The notes beneath the pieces are model-generated. The model saw only the letters and a program-made list of their open reading frames with translations, searched no databases and was not told the DNA's origin. The position numbers and the translations under genes were made by a program. Below are positions 2,752-33,074 of a DNA stretch of 36,220 nt, one piece after another. Within the stretch, counting starts at the first letter, position 1; the number at the start of each line of letters is the position of its first letter. This stretch comes from a virus. The stretch covers positions 1 to 36,220 of IMG/VR virus record IMGVR_UViG_3300045988_159601. One strand, 5' to 3'.

Positions 2752-3108
2752 ATGGACAACAAAAAATTCAATACCCTGGTGGATGAGCTTCGGACTGCTA
2801 GCATCGACACGCTGGCCGCGAAAAATGCAAAATACGCAGGCTATTCGGGGGATGCTCTCCATAATTTCCGGGAGGGTGCGGCTTTTACCGGGGATACCAC
2901 AGCACAAACCTGCTGGGGTTACATGGCGAAACACCTGGTAGCCCTGCATGATATGGTGATTCTCAACCGATTTGATGATCGAGAGGATTTTCTGGAGAAG
3001 TGCAAAGACACGGTAAACTACCTGTGTATCCTGTGGGCTATTGGCAACGAACAGCGGGAAATCGCACAAATGGCCCTGAATTGGGAGAAGGAAGAGACGA
3101 AAGAATAA
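2752..3108 (+). CDS. Hypothetical all-alpha protein. Tentatively DUF1599/Nmad1-like (nucleotide-modification-associated) or DUF3310-like.
   Basis: 118 aa with an AGGAGG SD upstream. Pattern AKNAKYAG...ALHNF...KHLVAL...DTVNYLCILWAI resembles those families from memory. Needs an HMM check. Confidence 0.6.
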   Translation: MDNKKFNTLVDELRTASIDTLAAKNAKYAGYSGDALHNFREGAAFTGDTTAQTCWGYMAKHLVALHDMVILNRFDDREDFLEKCKDTVNYLCILWAIGNEQREIAQMALNWEKEETKE

Positions 3109-3116
3109 AAGCCAAA

Positions 3117-3138
3117 GGCCGGGGACTATTCCCCGGCC
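3117..3138. terminator. Bidirectional rho-independent-type hairpin at the convergence of the plus early operon and the minus HTH gene
   Basis: ggccgggga-ctat-tccccggcc: 9-bp GC stem. T-rich run downstream on the plus strand (tcttcttc) and on the minus strand (tttggcttttattctttc). The right arm overlaps the last codons of the minus HTH gene. Confidence 0.6.
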
Positions 3139-3338
3139 TCTTCTTCGTCCACATATTCCATTAAATCACCTGGTTGGCAGTTCAGCAGCTTACAGAGTTT
3201 GTCGATGGTCACCGTCTCAAACCCGCCCGTGCCATTCAACGCCTTTGCTATGATGGTTGGGCTGATACCGGCTTTTCTCAGCCGGTATTTAGCTCCACGC
3301 TCTTCGAGCTTCGCCTTAAATCCGTTGTAGGTAATCAT
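3126..3338 (-). CDS. Small Cro/C1-type (HTH_26-like) DNA-binding protein, 70 aa
   Basis: MITYNGFKAKLEERGAKYRLRKAGISPTIIAKALNGTGGFETVTIDKLCKLLNCQPGDLMEYV has the typical HTH pattern. The ATG at 3338 overlaps the upstream stop (TAATG). The longer track ORF start (3401) would overlap the upstream gene. Confidence 0.75.
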   Translation of the reverse strand: MITYNGFKAKLEERGAKYRLRKAGISPTIIAKALNGTGGFETVTIDKLCKLLNCQPGDLMEYVDEEEAGE

Positions 3339-3700
3339 TAGCACACCGCCAATTCTGTTTTGAGCTGTACCAGCGTTTCTGTGTCTACCGATTCCGGCCA
3401 TACTGCGGCTCGGCGGACCTGGGCGCTGAACCGCTTAACCCTGGCCAGCCGCTCTCTTTCTTCGGGCGGTCTCACCGTCTCTATTTCGTCCCAGTCCAGC
3501 TCTTCAGGGTCCATGCTGGATTCAAAATCCAGTACGTTTGTAAAATCCAGGCCCAGGATGAGCGCCCCCTGCAACAGGGCCGGGTCAAGGTGGCCTTCCC
3601 GGTAGGTCAGTACTTCCCCATCGTCAAAAGTCACGGTCGTGATAACTAACCGCCGGGGTTCCGTCTCGCGGATTTCGCTCTTAACAGCTACGAGTTTCAT
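3338..3700 (-). CDS. Acidic hypothetical protein (120 aa), first gene of a two-gene moron
   Basis: The start at 3700 was chosen because the AGAAAGGA SD lies 8 nt upstream, as in five paralogous leaders. The track N-terminal extension (to 3820) coincides with promoter sequence. Strong excess of D/E residues. Confidence 0.65.
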   Translation of the reverse strand: MKLVAVKSEIRETEPRRLVITTVTFDDGEVLTYREGHLDPALLQGALILGLDFTNVLDFESSMDPEELDWDEIETVRPPEERERLARVKRFSAQVRRAAVWPESVDTETLVQLKTELAVC

Positions 3701-3751
3701 AGTGTCCATCCTTTCTGCCTTTCGGCTGTCCGTCTCCTTTACTGTGCCTTT

Positions 3752-3780
3752 ATTGTATACCAGCTTATACAGAATTGCAA
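3752..3780 (-). promoter_or_regulatory. Sigma70-like promoter of the acidic-protein/HTH operon
   Basis: Minus strand reads TTGCAA, 17 nt, TACAAT. About 80 nt of promoter plus leader is near-identical to 24096..24176. Confidence 0.5.
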
Positions 3781-3835
3781 CAGGCAGACTGTACAAAAAC
3801 AAGTACACCGCTTTGTGCAACCCGAAAAGAAAAAA

Positions 3836-3857
3836 CCCACCGGGTTTAGCCGGTGGG
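3836..3857. terminator. Bidirectional terminator hairpin ending the minus-strand late (lysis) operon
   Basis: cccaccgg-gtttag-ccggtggg, flanked by an A run upstream and cttt ctttt downstream. On the minus strand it is followed by ttttttcttttc. Confidence 0.7.
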
Positions 3858-3944
3858 CTTTCTTTTGCTGAAAAACGGGACTTTCGAGTGGTCCATATTC
3901 ATTATATCACTGGGCGCTCGAATCGTCAAGCGTTTTACCATGAC

Positions 3945-4730
3945 TTACTTGAGCAGCCCCAAACGGCCCAGCACAGCGGCCAGCTCATCCCGTTTGACAG
4001 GGCGCTCCGGCCCCGTGCCGTCCATGATACCGCGATGCTTCAGGCCCTGGAAAGCGCCCTCTTTTTTCGACCACTCAGGCTCCGGCAGGTTGTCGGCGTA
4101 GGCCATGGCCTCAGCTACGATAGCATAGCACATTTCAGGGGTGAGCTGCTCGACGATCTTCTTGATGTCCATATCGTTTTCCTCTCTGCCCGCAAGACGG
4201 GCGTTTACCTGCCCGGCAATCCACGGATGCAGGTTGTACAGGTAGTCCCCAGGACACACCTTGTCCGTTCGCGTCCAACGGTGTACCACCATGTTCTGCG
4301 CGGCCCAATTACCCATCAAATCCCGCCGTCCGTGCCACAGCAGCGCTTTAATACCGTTCCGCTGGCAGATGTCGGTCAGCAGGTCGAGCAGGGCAGACAG
4401 GGCTTTGTCCGTCACCCGGTTAGGCGCGTCAATGTCGCTTGCCACCTCAATAGATACTATTTGATGGTCAATCGGGTTTGACGTACACCATGCCCGATCC
4501 GATTCAGGCACGACTAAGGCAATGGACCCGTCCCCACCTACCGCATAGTTGCAGGAAGCACCATTTTTCCGGTCGTAGGTGGTAAACCGGCCCAGGTCCG
4601 CCGTATCCCGTGCGCGTTTGTTCCGTCCGCCCGCGGTGCAGTGGATAGCCACGCCCCGGATGACGCCGTTCCGGGGGCTTGTGCGGTTCGGAGAGATACG
4701 GGTATAGGTTACGAGTTTACTGTTGCTCAT
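3945..4730 (-). CDS. Endolysin: N-acetylmuramoyl-L-alanine amidase (Amidase_2/PGRP type) with an SLH-like C-terminal segment
   Basis: N-terminal IHCTAG...YAVGGDG...AWCTSN...IEV pattern of amidase_2. Located directly after the holin. AGAGG SD. Confidence 0.85.
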   Translation of the reverse strand: MSNSKLVTYTRISPNRTSPRNGVIRGVAIHCTAGGRNKRARDTADLGRFTTYDRKNGASCNYAVGGDGSIALVVPESDRAWCTSNPIDHQIVSIEVASDIDAPNRVTDKALSALLDLLTDICQRNGIKALLWHGRRDLMGNWAAQNMVVHRWTRTDKVCPGDYLYNLHPWIAGQVNARLAGREENDMDIKKIVEQLTPEMCYAIVAEAMAYADNLPEPEWSKKEGAFQGLKHRGIMDGTGPERPVKRDELAAVLGRLGLLK

Positions 4731-4923
4731 TTTGTTTTACCTCTGGCAGTCCTGCAACGCTGGTCAGCAGGGAGATGATACCGGCCAGCACCGTAGCGGA
4801 CAGTACAACCGGCCAGTCAACGGCGGACAGTACAGCCGCCGCGCCGATGCAGGCGATTGCGGTCTGTGCCATAGTCCGCACGGCCCGAACAAGCGCAGCT
4901 TTTAACCAAGCCTTGTTAATCAT
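4717..4923 (-). CDS. Holin (LL-H / phi LC3-like, 68 aa)
   Basis: KAALVRAVRTMAQTAIACIGAA plus a second hydrophobic helix and a charged C-terminus. GGAGG SD. Overlaps the endolysin start. Confidence 0.75.
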   Translation of the reverse strand: MINKAWLKAALVRAVRTMAQTAIACIGAAAVLSAVDWPVVLSATVLAGIISLLTSVAGLPEVKQNEQQ

Positions 4924-4928
4924 AGGTA

Positions 4929-5249
4929 TTACCTCCTATCTATCGGAAGTTCTTCGATTTCTGCTATTACAGTGTCAAGGTGGCCGTTACCACCCAGAGC
5001 TTTGTAATTTTTGTGCATTTCAAGTAAGGTTTCCTTGTCTGCAAGACTAATACTTCCCTTATTGATATAACACTGCCCCAAATAGCGCACACGGTCAACC
5101 ATCATAATTTTCTGGGCTGATACCAAGGCTGTTAAACGGTCATCCTCCCTGTCCTTCTTTGTCCAATATCTATTGAGCAGGGCTACGATGATAGCAGACA
5201 GCCCGCCGCCACCGAACGCGGCTAAAATGAGTTGCGCGATAGTATCCAA
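4929..5249 (-). CDS. Membrane protein with one N-terminal TM helix (106 aa, TTG start). Possible lysis accessory protein.
   Basis: The hydrophobic N-terminus ILAAFGGGGLSAIIVALL is followed by a charged soluble domain. Lies immediately upstream of the holin. Confidence 0.6.
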   Translation of the reverse strand: MDTIAQLILAAFGGGGLSAIIVALLNRYWTKKDREDDRLTALVSAQKIMMVDRVRYLGQCYINKGSISLADKETLLEMHKNYKALGGNGHLDTVIAEIEELPIDRR

Positions 5250-5279
5250 ATAGAATACCTCTCTATCTAATGTTCTGTA

Positions 5280-5729
5280 TTAGTTTTGTACCTCTTCCCA
5301 CCCAGCCGGGTAGGCATCCGGGGCATAGACGTTATTGGCAATTTTTGACCGGTAGGTCTTTCCGGAATAGGTACAACAGTCCCCAATGCCGTAGGGGCTG
5401 GTAGATAAGGCTACGAATGGTAGGGCTTTCGCGGGGTCGGTGGACCACTTAAACCCCCACTGAGCGGGTAGCTCTTCCGGCTCCTGTGTGTATACGCTGC
5501 TGTCGTAGGGCTGCAACAGAACAACAACACGCCCAGCGGTGGAACGGCAGACAAACCCGGCGGAACGGGTAGACATATTTTTCAGGGCTACGGCGCTCTT
5601 GAACGCCGGAATTTTATCCGTCTCAGCGTACAACTCCGTACCAGTCAGCGCAGAGGCCCGATCTTGCAGGTCTTTAGCATCTGCAAGGCCCTTCTCACGC
5701 ATTGCGGTAAAATAGATAGACTCAGTCAA
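5280..5729 (-). CDS. Tail-fibre-region protein with a possible carbohydrate-binding (CBM5/12-like) C-terminus
   Basis: 149 aa. C-terminal GDCCTYSGKTYRSKIANNVYAPDAYPAGWEEV resembles the aromatic-rich chitin-binding-type motif (from memory). Confidence 0.55.
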   Translation of the reverse strand: MTESIYFTAMREKGLADAKDLQDRASALTGTELYAETDKIPAFKSAVALKNMSTRSAGFVCRSTAGRVVVLLQPYDSSVYTQEPEELPAQWGFKWSTDPAKALPFVALSTSPYGIGDCCTYSGKTYRSKIANNVYAPDAYPAGWEEVQN

Positions 5730-23511: not shown

Positions 23512-23584
23512 AGTTATCTTCCTTTCTGGCCGGGCTTGTGACCGGCCTGCCGCATTACCGGGGCCGAAGCCCCGTCACTCTGCG
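23512..23584 (-). repeat. Structured intergenic element, copy A
   Basis: Minus strand: cgcagagtgac-CGGGGC-ttcg-GCCCCG-gtaatgcggca-GGCCGG-tcacaagc-CCGGCC-agaaaggaagataact. Confidence 0.8.
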
Positions 23585-23789: not shown

Positions 23790-23865
23790 TTTTATCTTCC
23801 TTTCTGGCCGGGGTTGTGACCGGCTCTCCCGCATTACCAGAGGCTTGCGCCCCTGTCACTCTGCG
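23790..23865 (-). repeat. Structured intergenic element, copy B
   Basis: Minus strand: cgcagagtgac-AGGGGC-gcaa-GCCTCT-ggtaatgcgggaga-GCCGG-tcacaacc-CCGGC-cagaaaggaagataaaa. The TGA stop of the upstream gene lies within it. Confidence 0.8.
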
Positions 23866-29779: not shown

Positions 29780-30343
29780 ATGAGTGTAAAAATTATGCTG
29801 CGTAACGTGCGCCTGAGCTATGAGCACATCTTCACCCCAACCGCGTTTGACGATAGTCAGGATGCAAAGTATTCCGCGACGTTCATCATCCCCAAGGAAC
29901 ACACGGACCTCGACAAGGTCAAGGCCGCTTTCCGTGCCGCCGGTGCGGACAAGTACCCCAATTCCTTCAAGGGCACCGAGTGGCCGAAGGGTTTCACTTG
30001 CAGTCTCAAGGACGCAGACGTGCAGACCGACAGCATGGGTGAGCTGCTGGCAGAAAAGAATCCCGCTTATGCCGGTTGCTACATTCTGGAGGCCAACAGC
30101 ACCCGCCGCCCTGTTGTCGTGGGCCGTCGGAAAGAGGCCCTGACCGCTGAGGATGGAGTGATCTATTCTGGGTGCTATGTCAACGCATCCCTGGCCGCTG
30201 CGCCCTACGAGTACGGCAAAGTTAAGCGGGGCGTGAAAGCCTACCTGAACGGTGTGCAGTTTGTCAAGGACGGTGAGCGGTTCGGAACGGACGCGCTGAG
30301 CGACTTCGATGACCTGGAAGATGACGATGACTTCACGAACTGA
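29780..30343 (+). CDS. DUF2815-type phage single-stranded DNA-binding protein
   Basis: 187 aa. N-terminal LRNVRLSYEHIF and an acidic C-terminal tail DFDDLEDDDDF. Confidence 0.8.
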   Translation: MSVKIMLRNVRLSYEHIFTPTAFDDSQDAKYSATFIIPKEHTDLDKVKAAFRAAGADKYPNSFKGTEWPKGFTCSLKDADVQTDSMGELLAEKNPAYAGCYILEANSTRRPVVVGRRKEALTAEDGVIYSGCYVNASLAAAPYEYGKVKRGVKAYLNGVQFVKDGERFGTDALSDFDDLEDDDDFTN

Positions 30344-33074
30344 GCCGTCCCGGCGGTTAGTGCTGGACTTAGAGACGTTTTCCAGCGCTGACCTGCCCCG
30401 TGGCGGGGTAAAAAAATACACGGAAGCGCCGGACTTCGAGATTCTTCTCATGTCCTACGCTTGGGATGGTGGGCCGGTGCAACTGTGGGATTTCACCCAG
30501 TACGGCCCGCCGGACTGGTTGGCCCCCGTACTCGTGGACCCTGCATTTACTAAAATCGCCTGGAACGTATCATTTGAGCGGAACTGTCTCAACGCGGCCC
30601 TGGGCATCTATACCCCGCCCGAACAGTGGCGGGACGCTATGACCCTGGCCGCTATGAACGGCCTGCCTATGTCGCTGGACGCGGCGGGCGCGGCCCTGCA
30701 ACTCCAACAGCAGAAACTCGCTATCGGTAAAGCCCTTATCCGGTATTTCTGCACACCGTGTAAGCCCACGATTTCAAATAAGGGCCGAACTCGTAACCTG
30801 CCCGAACACGCCCCGGACAAGTGGGAGCAGTTCAAGGAATACTGTTTGAGGGATACCGTTGTTGAGCAAACCATATACGACCGGTTAGCGTCGTTCCCCG
30901 TCCCCGAATGGGAGCGCCGGTTAGAGGCATTGGACGCCCACATAAACGAAAGGGGCGTGCTGGTGGACATGGAACTAGCCGAATCCGCCGTAGCGCTCGA
31001 CGAACGGTCCCGCGCTCAGAACGTGGCAGAGATGCAGGCAATCACCGGGCTGGATAACCCCGGAAGTGTGGCCCAGCTCAAGGCGTGGCTCTCCACTAAA
31101 AACGTCAACGTGGCCAGCCTGAACAAGGCCACCGTGTCCGAATTGTTGGACACTGTGACAGACCCAGCAACCCGCCGGGTGCTGGAATTGCGACAGCTGA
31201 CCGGCAAAACGTCTACCAAAAAATACCAGGCTATCCTAGACGCGGCCTGTGCAGACCACCGAATCCGTGGCCTGCTCCAATACTACGGAGCGGCCCGGAC
31301 TGGGCGGTGGGCCGGGCGGCGGGTACAGCTGCAAAACCTGGCACAGAACCATCTAGAGAATATCGGCACTGTGAGAGAGTTAGTCCGTGCCCGCGACCTG
31401 GAGACCCTAGAGCTTGCCTATGACAGCGTGCCTGACGTACTGTCTCAGCTCATCCGCACTGCCCTGATAGCCAAACCGGGGCACACGTTCCTGGTGGCGG
31501 ACTATTCGGCGATTGAGGCCCGCGTCGTGGCGTGGATGGCCGGGGAGCAGTGGCGGATGGATGTTTTCGCCCAGGGTGGGGACATCTATTGCAGCTCTGC
31601 CTCTCAGATGTTCCATGTGCCCGTCGTAAAACACGGCGTAAACGGTCACTTGCGCCAAAAGGGCAAGATCGCGGAGCTGGCTTGTATCGCTGAGGGACAA
31701 TTAGTGCTAACCGATACCGGCCTAGTGCCTATCGAGCAGGTGACAACGGACCATCTCGTATGGGATGGGATAGAGTGGGTAAACCATGACGGCGTTGTTT
31801 GCCGTGGAGAACGGGAGGTAATCAGTTATGGGGGATTGGAGGCGACAGCGGACCACCTCGTATGGGCCACGCTCGACGGGAACAGTGGGCCGGTACAGTT
31901 CGGAGACGCCGCCACCAGCGGCGCACATCTCTTACAAACCGGAACAGGTAGGAACCCGGTTCGGGTGGGTGACGATCATCGACCCGGAAAAACGATGGAA
32001 CAAGAGCTGGAACCATTGTTACGTCCTGACCCGGTGCAACGGTTGCGGACGGGAACAATGACAGTATCTGGACAACCTGAGAAGCGGAAAATCCAAAGGC
32101 GGCCAGAGTTGTTCTCAGCGTCGAGCGGTTCCCCGTTGGTTGGACCGGCGTTTTACGGCGGCAAAACAGCGTTGCGAGAATCCGAAGGATACGAATTACA
32201 AGAACTACGGGGCACGGGGGATACAGTTTCGGTTTCCGAGTGTGACAGACGCCGCTATTTACATGATCGAGACGAACGGGCTTCCAGACCGGAGTTTAGA
32301 GCTGGACCGGATAGACGTAAACGGCCACTACGAGCCGGGCAATCTGAGATGGGTAACACACCAACAGAACTGCCAGAACCAACGCCGATTTCTGGAAAAG
32401 TGAGAGTGTACGATATCCTGAACGCGGGGCCGCGTCACCGATTCACCGTATCCGGGGTTCTGGTTCATAACTGCGGTTACGGCGGCGGTGTAGGCGCGTT
32501 GAAAGCGTTTGGTGCAGACAAAATGGGCCTGTCGGAGGATGAAATGCAAACCATCGTCCAGCATTGGAGACGGGCATCTCCTACTATCCCCCGTTTCTGG
32601 TCTGCGACCGAGCGGGCCGCCCGGTCTGCGCTGGCCCACCCCGGCAAAACGTTTTCCGTCCAGCCCTGCGGGGTGAAATACCGCCGGGACGCGGACGCCC
32701 TGCGGTGTAAGCTGCCCAGCGGGCGTATCCTGTCGTACTGGGGCGCGAACATAGGCCCAGACGGACACCTGTATTACATGGGCCAGAACCAGACTACTAG
32801 AAAATGGGAGCGGACGGAGACATGGGGCGGCAAACTGGTAGAGAACATCGTCCAGGCCGTGGCCCGTGACTGTCTGGCCGTTGCCCTGCTTCGGCTTGAT
32901 GATGCTGGTTTTCAAACACTATTCACCGTCCACGATGAGGTAATAGTGGAGGAACCACAGGGACGCAGGACATGGCAGGACGTGGCCGAAATCATGGGCC
33001 AACCCATTGACTGGGCACCAGGTCTGTTGTTACGCGGGGACGGCTACGAGACACCATTTTATATGAAGGACTGA
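30309..33074 (+). CDS. Family-A DNA polymerase (3'-5' exo + pol) containing an intein. The start could be 30309, 30321 or 30327.
   Basis: ExoI LVLDLETFS, motif A LVADYSAIEARV, motif B KGKIAELA/CGYGGG interrupted by the intein, and motif C FTVHDEV. Confidence 0.9.
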   Translation: MTWKMTMTSRTEPSRRLVLDLETFSSADLPRGGVKKYTEAPDFEILLMSYAWDGGPVQLWDFTQYGPPDWLAPVLVDPAFTKIAWNVSFERNCLNAALGIYTPPEQWRDAMTLAAMNGLPMSLDAAGAALQLQQQKLAIGKALIRYFCTPCKPTISNKGRTRNLPEHAPDKWEQFKEYCLRDTVVEQTIYDRLASFPVPEWERRLEALDAHINERGVLVDMELAESAVALDERSRAQNVAEMQAITGLDNPGSVAQLKAWLSTKNVNVASLNKATVSELLDTVTDPATRRVLELRQLTGKTSTKKYQAILDAACADHRIRGLLQYYGAARTGRWAGRRVQLQNLAQNHLENIGTVRELVRARDLETLELAYDSVPDVLSQLIRTALIAKPGHTFLVADYSAIEARVVAWMAGEQWRMDVFAQGGDIYCSSASQMFHVPVVKHGVNGHLRQKGKIAELACIAEGQLVLTDTGLVPIEQVTTDHLVWDGIEWVNHDGVVCRGEREVISYGGLEATADHLVWATLDGNSGPVQFGDAATSGAHLLQTGTGRNPVRVGDDHRPGKTMEQELEPLLRPDPVQRLRTGTMTVSGQPEKRKIQRRPELFSASSGSPLVGPAFYGGKTALRESEGYELQELRGTGDTVSVSECDRRRYLHDRDERASRPEFRAGPDRRKRPLRAGQSEMGNTPTELPEPTPISGKVRVYDILNAGPRHRFTVSGVLVHNCGYGGGVGALKAFGADKMGLSEDEMQTIVQHWRRASPTIPRFWSATERAARSALAHPGKTFSVQPCGVKYRRDADALRCKLPSGRILSYWGANIGPDGHLYYMGQNQTTRKWERTETWGGKLVENIVQAVARDCLAVALLRLDDAGFQTLFTVHDEVIVEEPQGRRTWQDVAEIMGQPIDWAPGLLLRGDGYETPFYMKD
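31683..32471 (+). mobile_element. Intein (263 codons) in motif B of the DNA polymerase
   Basis: Starts CIAEGQLVLTDTGLVPIEQV (block A). Has GGLEATADHLVW (block B, TxxH). Ends RVYDILNAGPRHRFTVSGVLVHN, followed by a +1 Cys (CGYGGG). Confidence 0.85.
31828..32403 (+). pseudogene. HNH_3-like homing-endonuclease reading frame nested in the intein in the +1 frame, interrupted by one TGA (32059..32061)
   Basis: GGGAGG SD at 31813..31818, then ATG 31828. The frame reads ...VGTRFGWVTIIDPEKRWNKSWNHCYVLTRCNGCGREQ*QYLDNLRSGKSKG...FTAAKQRCENPKDTNYKNYGARGIQF...SLELDRIDVNGHYEPGNLRWVTHQQNCQN. Confidence 0.7.

Follow-up and report, generated by a model that had tools for sequence, protein, structure and literature searches.

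Why does a phage DNA polymerase gene hold, in a second reading frame, a sequence that reads like a homing endonuclease, while its own frame stays open throughout? We address this question for a locus in the IMG/VR virus record IMGVR_UViG_3300045988_159601 (positions 1 to 36,220; the whole stretch of 36,220 nucleotides is called the window below), where an intein-like insertion lies within the gene for a family-A DNA polymerase (PolA). An earlier note, made from the letters alone, had described the layout and offered three accounts of it: assembly indels, a free-standing endonuclease gene overprinted inside a mini-intein, or an endonuclease domain knocked out of frame and decaying. Every part of that layout was recovered, namely the GGGAGG motif, the ATG at 31828, the TGA codons at 32059..32061 and 32401..32403, and the open polymerase frame (Table 1). 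We consider it likely that the locus is a composite selfish element, in which a mini-intein in a phage family-A polymerase gene harbours, nested in the +1 frame, a separate gene for a homing endonuclease.

The polymerase intein and the gene nested in it

The polymerase precursor is encoded by a single open reading frame (ORF) of 921 codons that is continuous through the insert, with no stop in the polymerase frame (frame 0) across the intein; the host gene in the window is not split into two separately translated ORFs, as in a fractured gene. With the intein removed, the predicted 658-residue product aligns end to end with the intein-less polymerase of Acutalibacteraceae phage NatCom_991 (residues 15-658 against 2-646, 48.6% identity). 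The insertion point is KIAELA/CGYGGG (here and below a slash marks a junction), and the preceding sequence reads ...KGKIAELA. At this site the NatCom_991 polymerase reads KIAELALGYGGS, free of any insert, and the alignment crosses the junction; split at the insertion point, its empty site is ...AAAATTGCCGAGCTGGCT/CTTGGCTACGGTGGC..., and blastn matches to intein-less polymerases end at the intein boundary.

The insert begins with Cys1 (TGT, 31683..31685), contains block B as T55-A-D-H58, and ends with a C-terminal His-Asn pair at 32466..32471 (in ...LVHN, 32460..32471); T55 and H58 are at least 90% conserved among 52 homologues. In the AlphaFold2 model, the two Hint lobes enclose a middle (residues about 100-225) that has pLDDT (predicted local distance difference test) values of 33-58 and no secondary structure. 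The top ~45 Foldseek matches of the intein model in the PDB were all inteins or Hint domains (AceL NrdHF, Npu DnaE, Ssp DnaB, Mtu RecA and Hedgehog among them), the best having E=7e-4 and a probability of 1.0. Intein hidden Markov models of Pfam and NCBIfam gave no match to the window intein, and its frame-0 middle matched no family in Pfam, NCBIfam or PHROG. Because Cys1, TADH, HN and Cys+1 are all present, we assign the insert, on motifs and model, to the class-1 mini-inteins, with a long linker predicted to be disordered. The nucleophiles, block B and His-Asn, the predicted Hint fold, and an in-frame insertion for which intein-less alleles exist were all found, and GC content at third codon positions shifts in phase within the insert.

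The ATG at 31828..31830 is in the +1 frame relative to the polymerase start ((31828-30309) mod 3 = 1), and the ORF that it opens ends with the terminal TGA after codon 191, its first 40 codons overlapping the Hint N-lobe. Translated across the internal TGA, this frame matches PHROG families labelled HNH endonuclease (phrog_374, E=2.4e-24, residues 41-188; phrog_3377, E=3.9e-22). Its earlier description as an HNH_3-type endonuclease is not borne out as a family assignment, the HNH and HNH_3 models of Pfam giving no match. AlphaFold2 modelled the intact 191-residue relative P0001 with a pLDDT of 87, predicting beta structure at the N-terminus that includes a C70/C73/C92/C95 zinc ribbon, then two helices and a C-terminal beta-beta-alpha motif; many predicted phage proteins that bear the labels HNH, homing endonuclease or AP2-domain protein are similar to the model. 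The stretch of the predicted beta-beta-alpha motif (residues 158-183) has weak matches to the PHROG HNH families phrog_4578 and phrog_99. Three of its residues, R161, N172 and N184, are invariant among 120 homologues, and the invariant Arg occupies the position of the usual HNH general-base His.

The endonuclease of the window and its closest relatives is of a short form (junction in Table 1); the stretch that it lacks is the C-terminal helix-rich domain of the long endonuclease. Because several relatives have the short form in an intact state and under selection (it is intact in L007, L008, L009, L087 and P0001-P0011), the absence of this 48-codon domain from the window is not a lesion. In the long form, the endonuclease ORF either ends no more than 8 nt before the end of the intein or passes it by 22 nt. 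The endonuclease stop comes from Hint block F codons in the window (32401-32403), L008 (2305-2307), L018 and L058, and several relatives' ORFs end in ...TTS and a stop because YDILN (…ATC CTG AAC) reads TCC TGA in the +1 frame.

Table 1. Features of the polymerase locus, in window coordinates.
Feature	Position	Strand	Remarks
Family-A DNA polymerase precursor ORF	30309..33074	+	921 aa; Pfam DNA_pol_A, E=2.6e-20
Intein, 263 aa, frame 0 (predicted)	31683..32471	+	starts CIAEGQLVLTD, ends ...VLVHN, then CGYGGG
N-terminal Hint lobe, intein residues 1-95	31683..31967	+	pLDDT 88-97, beta strands
Shine-Dalgarno-like GGGAGG	31813..31818	+	9 nt 5' of the +1-frame ATG; within Hint codons R-E-V
Endonuclease ORF, +1 frame, 191 codons + stop	31828..32403	+	interrupted at codon 78; PHROG 374/3377/2081
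Frame-0 linker, intein residues about 96-234	31968..32384	+	endonuclease gene read in the polymerase frame; predicted disordered
Premature TGA, endonuclease codon 78	32059..32061	+	TGG (Trp) in 9/9 aligned relatives
GGC (Gly), endonuclease codon 92	32101..32103	+	TGC/TGT (Cys) in 9/9 aligned relatives; predicted C70/C73/C92/C95 zinc ribbon
Predicted beta-beta-alpha motif (ELDRID...YEPGNLRWVTHQQN; D160, R161, N172, N184)	32299..32379	+	DSSP strands 158-161, 173-176; helix 178-183
C-terminal Hint lobe, intein residues 235-263, blocks F and G	32385..32471	+	...VYDILNAGPRHRFTVSGVLVHN; pLDDT 94-96, strands
Junction of the short form	32394..32395	+	144 nt (48 codons) fewer than in 309-aa 'long' inteins; from DNA alignment; in the window and closest relatives
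+1 extein Cys codon TGC	32472..32474	+	predicted splicing nucleophile; intein-less allele has Leu

Selection, start signals and relatives

The earlier note had proposed codon shuffling as a gauge of how unlikely the open frame 0 is, and the result bears out its suspicion. Keeping the endonuclease protein fixed, we reshuffled synonymous codons at 27 loci and counted stops in the host frame. For the window, reshuffling within the ORF gave 5.6 expected polymerase-frame stops (P of zero = 0.0008), and extein codon usage gave 7.6, with 0/5000 trials free of stops; for AT-richer relatives 15-18 stops were expected, again with 0/5000 trials free of them. No stop was observed in any of these cases, and over the whole set the host frame was stop-free at 27/27 loci against 1-18 stops expected. 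The open polymerase frame exceeds chance.

The distribution of substitutions, tallied by polymerase codon position (1/2/3) in nine pairwise comparisons, changes phase at the nested gene. Comparison of the window with the 96%-identical contig L087 gives 27/9/3 for the endonuclease core and 7/6/26 for the C-extein; against L007, differences number 87/28/24 in the core and 23/12/60 in the N-extein, and the switch is present in 9/9 comparisons. Position 1 of a polymerase codon corresponds to position 3 of an endonuclease codon, so that the insert evolves in the manner of an endonuclease gene. Differences in the Hint N-lobe fall mainly at polymerase codon position 3, as do those in the C-terminal Hint lobe (0/0/5 and 0/1/12). 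In the 40 codons where Hint N-lobe and endonuclease overlap, differences are fewer in most comparisons and spread across all three positions, as expected for dual coding. These patterns show a +1 protein under purifying selection, and a frame 0 that is without amino-acid constraint over the linker and in which only stops are forbidden.

We surveyed start signals in 43 distinct +1 elements, taking 2202 ATGs in the same genes as controls. A Shine-Dalgarno (SD) sequence and ATG are present in 39/43, the ATG lying 38-42 codons 5' of the conserved VGxxYGW at which homology starts. This ATG is built from a Hint-frame Tyr codon, TAT, and the next G; all 39 elements use TAT, GC-rich genomes included, and the four elements without the conserved ATG have TAC instead. 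Every ATG-bearing element (39/39) matches AGGAGG in at least 4 of 6 positions, and 22/39 match in at least 5 of 6, compared with 4.6% of the control ATGs. A further ATG immediately 5' of the core occurs in 33/43 elements; the window is without it. Taken together, the start signals favour independent internal initiation.

A tblastn search of GenBank phages with the +1 protein recovered six Streptococcus phage records (five Javan phages and PhiSdyV1524) at 61-63% identity, with 62% to the +1 frame of the Javan phages, and Gardnerella phage vB_Gva_AB1 at 52%. These matches align from the first Met and always lie beneath one annotated 'DNA polymerase' coding sequence. In Javan101 and AB1, the match begins 1507 and 1528 nt past the polymerase start, which is the +1 frame, and both frames are stop-free. 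More distant homologues (29-38% identity) occur in EBPR siphovirus 2, Pseudomonas phage MR14 and Vibrio phage 97.13; these are in the +2 frame beneath an open host frame, and the polymerase inteins that hold them are at the same site or at most 3 codons away. In MR14, the insertion is three codons upstream (KIGKV/C...HN/CELALGF). The three phages (L003, L004 and L006, respectively) belong to a +2 sister clade of PolA inteins that also includes L017, L019, L020, L022, L025, L030, L033, L037, L053, L056 and L069, and whose candidate ATG comes from the Hint codons GAA-TGG of 'GVEWV'. Salmonella phage SAP012 (L005) has a free-standing, unannotated homologue (about 3001-3558) just downstream of an intein-less polymerase, overlapping the 3' end of the polymerase gene and the start of a VRR-NUC gene.

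A census of homologues covered viral contigs and species-representative bacterial genomes. The viral contigs yielded 80 loci, of which 23 are nested out of frame (12 in +1, 11 in +2) in host ORFs of 696-1211 codons and 57 are free-standing. The bacterial genomes yielded 79 loci: 54 nested (51 in +1 and 3 in +2; 3 of the 54 reach a contig end), 24 free-standing and 1 possible in-frame fusion. This last candidate, L163, was rejected on inspection as a free-standing ORF behind a spuriously open GC-rich frame. Across both collections, 77/159 loci are nested out of frame, mostly in PolA at the same site, and no in-frame endonuclease was found at any of the 159. The earlier note had proposed this comparison with related intein alleles.

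Nearly all nested cases from genomes are at K..ELA/CGYGG of the PolA gene; both complete chromosomes (Ruminococcus callidus ATCC 27760, Allobaculum mucilyticum and Gardnerella species) and metagenome-assembled genomes assigned to several other phyla are among them, and 46/49 genomic +1 elements retain at least 200 open endonuclease codons. Eight viral nested host ORFs were scanned against Pfam, giving 5 PolA, 1 superfamily 2 (SF2) helicase and 2 without a match. Members of the family nested in +1 in the inteins of other host proteins are L012 (host ORF 2800-5346), L013 and L058, one an SF2 helicase (ResIII + Helicase_C) and two without a Pfam match. Intein-less alleles and free-standing homologues both exist, as indicators of mobility.

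Gene prediction has yielded 419 protein clusters in the endonuclease frame. The GenBank phage records MK448666.1 and MW387018.1 have one long polymerase called and the endonuclease omitted; metagenome callers (the L088 gene calls, P0121-P0171) often truncate the polymerase at the Hint N-lobe and predict a gene in the endonuclease frame in its place. In L105 (Eubacterium plexicaudatum ASF492) and L088 (a Logan contig), 1-nt shifts, real or artefactual, put the upstream polymerase in the endonuclease frame, and in P0122 the frame-0 linker passes mid-gene into the endonuclease frame.

Proposed mechanism, state of the window copy and competing explanations

As we picture the composite element, ribosomes in frame 0 would make the polymerase precursor, in which the two Hint lobes would fold around a disordered linker of ~140 residues, the frame-0 reading of the endonuclease gene. 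The intein would then excise itself by cis-splicing at Cys1 and His-Asn/Cys+1, leaving an active polymerase. Initiation by other ribosomes at the internal SD and ATG, which lie within codons of the Hint N-lobe, would yield a free 191-residue endonuclease with a zinc ribbon and a beta-beta-alpha motif. In intact relatives, this enzyme would cut intein-less alleles at or near KIAELA/xGYGGG, and repair would copy intein and endonuclease together by gene conversion. Such an element may have arisen when a mini-intein captured a free-standing endonuclease gene, an origin that fits because most members of the family are free-standing and none was found in frame. The overprinting that the earlier note had considered thus appears correct for the lineage, given the intact relatives, the SD and ATG, the selection and free-standing homologues such as that of SAP012.

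A further proposal goes beyond this, and we hold it tentatively, as one that may well prove wrong: the family would pair with inteins solely in the form of an overlapping gene with its own translation. The PolA element would then be no passing accident but a design that is stable across phyla, and its non-canonical inteins might form the largest such group. Its occurrence never in frame, its use of two alternative frames and the start signals within Hint codons lend support to this proposal. The endonuclease, for which no solved relative was found and which has Arg in place of the catalytic His of HNH enzymes, might moreover be an uncharacterised type of nuclease.

Several observations weigh against the composite element as described. 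No family was found for the window +1 protein, P0001 or five relatives in Pfam at E up to 10, and an NCBIfam scan found no endonuclease family for the +1 protein; Foldseek searches of the PDB with the endonuclease model gave nothing better than E=0.39, and a profile search of PDB sequences gave one marginal match only, in the C-terminal domain of the long form. With Arg at the position of the general-base His, nuclease activity is itself something we infer. Because relatives were found in none of Pfam, NCBIfam and the PDB and Arg replaces this His, we treat 'HNH' as a label only, membership of that family not being demonstrated. Conservation of the SD and ATG is partly confounded with that of the Hint residues (K/R)-E-V..Y-G. 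In a test for recent horizontal transfer over 33 loci, conservation is 67% for the intein, 63% for the endonuclease and 51% for the flanking extein, a modest excess, and no near-identical endonuclease or intein in divergent exteins was found among 33 loci compared. Finally, the TGA and Gly codons discussed next are known from assembled sequence alone, and splicing, expression and cleavage are deduced for every member from its sequence.

The copy in the window differs from its relatives at two positions of the endonuclease (Table 1), W78 and C92, each at least 90% conserved among 120 homologues. The closest intact copy, P0001 on contig L087 (96% identity, same ATG, same stop), has TGG and TGC at the two lesion sites. 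Recoding of TGA as Trp was considered and rejected: TGA terminates 5/14 long ORFs in the window, the polymerase included, no tRNA genes were found within the window, and its GC content is 56%. A search of the window for an intact second copy of the endonuclease found none. The window copy therefore looks inactivated and does not offer an intact, expressible endonuclease ORF, although its SD and ATG are nonetheless present. With the endonuclease inactivated (Trp78 to TGA, Cys92 to Gly), the element in the window is probably immobile; its polymerase frame would still be open because the polymerase is needed.

Decay is also seen in relatives, namely L097 (a nonsense codon), Streptococcus porci L138 (a remnant) and the mini-inteins P0126 and P0138. 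The latter two are metagenomic PolA proteins with mini-inteins at the same PolA site that keep ~25 codons of the frame-0 endonuclease N-terminus (…GDGQRAIRLGENYKAREKVEQEVES…). They look like deletion derivatives of the nested element. Given the two lesions in the window and these other decayed relatives, we place the window, as far as its sequence allows, at the point in the homing cycle where degeneration begins.

Could the window's endonuclease still be functional? The TGA might be a base-call error or a minority variant, it might be read through as Trp at a low level, or the two halves might cooperate. TGA is one base from TGG and is the leakiest stop codon, usually misread as Trp; the downstream half has a TTG at 32140; and the mostly synonymous differences from the 96%-identical relative (27/9/3) make the inactivation very recent at most. 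We nevertheless regard a working copy as unlikely, since the same copy has a second, independent lesion at another near-invariant residue (Cys92 to Gly), TGA is a genuine stop in the window, polymerase included, and no suppressor tRNA was found there.

Very unlikely, in our estimate, is a recent accident in which a once in-frame endonuclease was knocked out of frame, the whole +1 ORF being a decaying relic and the offset itself the damage. The nonsense codon and the lost Cys ligand in the window would suit such an accident, as would the decayed relatives L097, L138, P0126 and P0138, but other relatives keep an uninterrupted out-of-frame ORF on which purifying selection acts, changes falling mostly at its own third codon positions, and which has a conserved SD and ATG. 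Every nested case is out of frame, across phyla and in two different frames, and relative to the 96%-identical intact copy the decay in the window amounts to two point changes only. The decay account in the earlier note thus survives in one half: the copy in the window does appear to be decaying (W78 nonsense, C92 lost), whereas its out-of-frame state is no recent accident, because none of the 159 loci holds an in-frame relative.

Translation of the endonuclease by programmed ribosomal frameshifting, either as a fusion of N-extein, Hint-N and endonuclease or, with a second shift back, as a canonical intein, is harder still to credit. The overlap of endonuclease and Hint N-lobe (~40 codons in the +1 clade, ~70 in the +2 clade) would leave room for a shift, and the overlap stretch is modelled at moderate to high confidence (pLDDT 88-94, residues 21-40). 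A stop codon lies 1-2 codons 5' of the conserved ATG in most elements, however, and both SD and ATG are conserved; the +1 and +2 clades would require shifts in opposite directions; free-standing homologues begin ~20 residues ahead of the conserved core; and no conserved slippery motif was noticed in the overlap, for which no formal search was made.

Assembly or sequencing indels, by which two compensating errors would have offset an ordinary in-frame endonuclease intein, do occur in single metagenomic contigs of the family (L088 and L105, with the upstream polymerase shifted, and P0122), but as an account of the offset they can be set aside as next to impossible, because the frame relation seen in the window recurs across independent assemblies that number more than 70 (six Streptococcus phage records, Gardnerella AB1 and other isolate phages, complete chromosomes and dozens of metagenomic contigs among them), an in-frame version is absent from the 159 loci, and a stop-free host frame with phase-switched substitutions is an evolutionary signal and not a signature of error.

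Known systems and wider meaning

The arrangement is unusual, as the earlier note had judged, and that judgement stands even though its kind is already in the literature. The closest precedent is the DnaX intein of Synechocystis, which was treated as non-canonical (Gorbalenya 1998) and which a 2026 preprint re-analyses with the same type of selection argument. In both systems, Hint lobes and extein share one frame and the endonuclease has another, the host frame stays open, and mini-intein derivatives coexist with the full element; the endonuclease frame is under purifying selection and constraint on the host frame is relaxed, and secondary invasion of a mini-intein is the proposed origin. The DnaX system differs in its LAGLIDADG endonuclease, its cellular dnaX gene and its '+2 ORF', whereas the window belongs to an unrelated phage family (zinc ribbon, beta-beta-alpha) in phage or prophage PolA, in the +1 frame (+2 in the sister clade), with its SD and ATG within Hint.

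Inteins of actinophages hold antisense LAGLIDADG and VSR-like endonucleases and a same-strand 'frame 3' endonuclease resembling endonuclease VII; they were called rare, and capture of free-standing genes was inferred (Gosselin, Arsenault and Gogarten, bioRxiv 10.1101/2025.01.02.630785). The endonuclease VII inteins are like the window in having a same-strand, out-of-frame endonuclease between the splicing blocks and an in-frame reading that is predicted to be unstructured. They differ in having a classical Endonuclease_7 (CxxC ... DHDH; Keitabear ...CDVCG...CVDHDHETGRVRGLLCNDCN...) and actinophage host genes, and an architecture that its authors call rare is here the only arrangement for 77 nested copies from several bacterial phyla. 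Homology between the two was considered and, at the level examined, rejected, the Endonuclease_7 motif (CxxC ... DHDH ... CN) being absent and the match to PHROG 1035 weak (E=0.005).

In fractured genes, the two halves of a split intein are separated by a free-standing endonuclease gene (Dassa et al. 2009, PMC2677866). In the window, too, an endonuclease of free-standing type separates the N and C splicing lobes within a replication gene; both arrangements fit a model in which free-standing endonuclease genes invade inteins. The fractured host is in two ORFs and its inteins splice in trans; the window appears as the unbroken counterpart, for which cis-splicing is expected because the host ORF has no break across the endonuclease gene. 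The ShiLan insertion is an HNH endonuclease, read out of frame, that is hidden in a mycobacteriophage DNA methylase (Arsenault et al. 2025, PMC11855218). It shares with the window the nested same-strand, out-of-frame endonuclease, the stop-free host frame and a predicted loop; it is without splicing domains, its insert is retained in the host protein and no SD was found, whereas the window has Hint lobes and a conserved SD and ATG. With canonical HNH and LAGLIDADG inteins, the element has in common an endonuclease between Hint blocks, a presumed homing cycle of invasion, decay and mini-intein, and a position in a conserved catalytic motif of a replication protein. It departs from them in that the endonuclease would lie outside the intein polypeptide, two proteins being made from overlapping frames.

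A literature search covering the Javan phages, vB_Gva_AB1, the EBPR siphovirus and PolA inteins found no description of the PolA element or of this endonuclease family inside inteins. The PolA element is thus apparently new and apparently abundant, although its kind has already been described, if rarely reported. For the study of overlapping genes, it offers a well-replicated natural case of two unrelated proteins in which one frame has only to avoid stops, and hence a test bed for the evolution of overlaps. Its layout also informs the debate on whether inteins gain endonucleases by capture or by in-frame fusion, standing between contiguous canonical inteins and 'fractured' split-intein genes; if the family does pair with inteins only as an overlapping gene, this would directly support acquisition by capture of free-standing genes. 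For annotation, the consequence is that the polymerase is often split into two truncated calls with the endonuclease frame between them, or that the endonuclease goes uncalled. As for tools, the intein would seem to tolerate an arbitrary linker of ~140 residues, and the uncharacterised endonuclease family may recognise long sites within a conserved motif of the polymerase. The biology of the window itself is ordinary, that of a selfish element apparently beginning its decay phase.

Elsewhere in the window, between the minus-strand structural genes and the plus-strand replication genes, are two full-length matches to the Type-P5 twister ribozyme (RF02684), at 23530-23584 and 23808-23865, both on the minus strand and ~220 nt apart, scoring 69.6 and 64 bits against a gathering score of 37.6.

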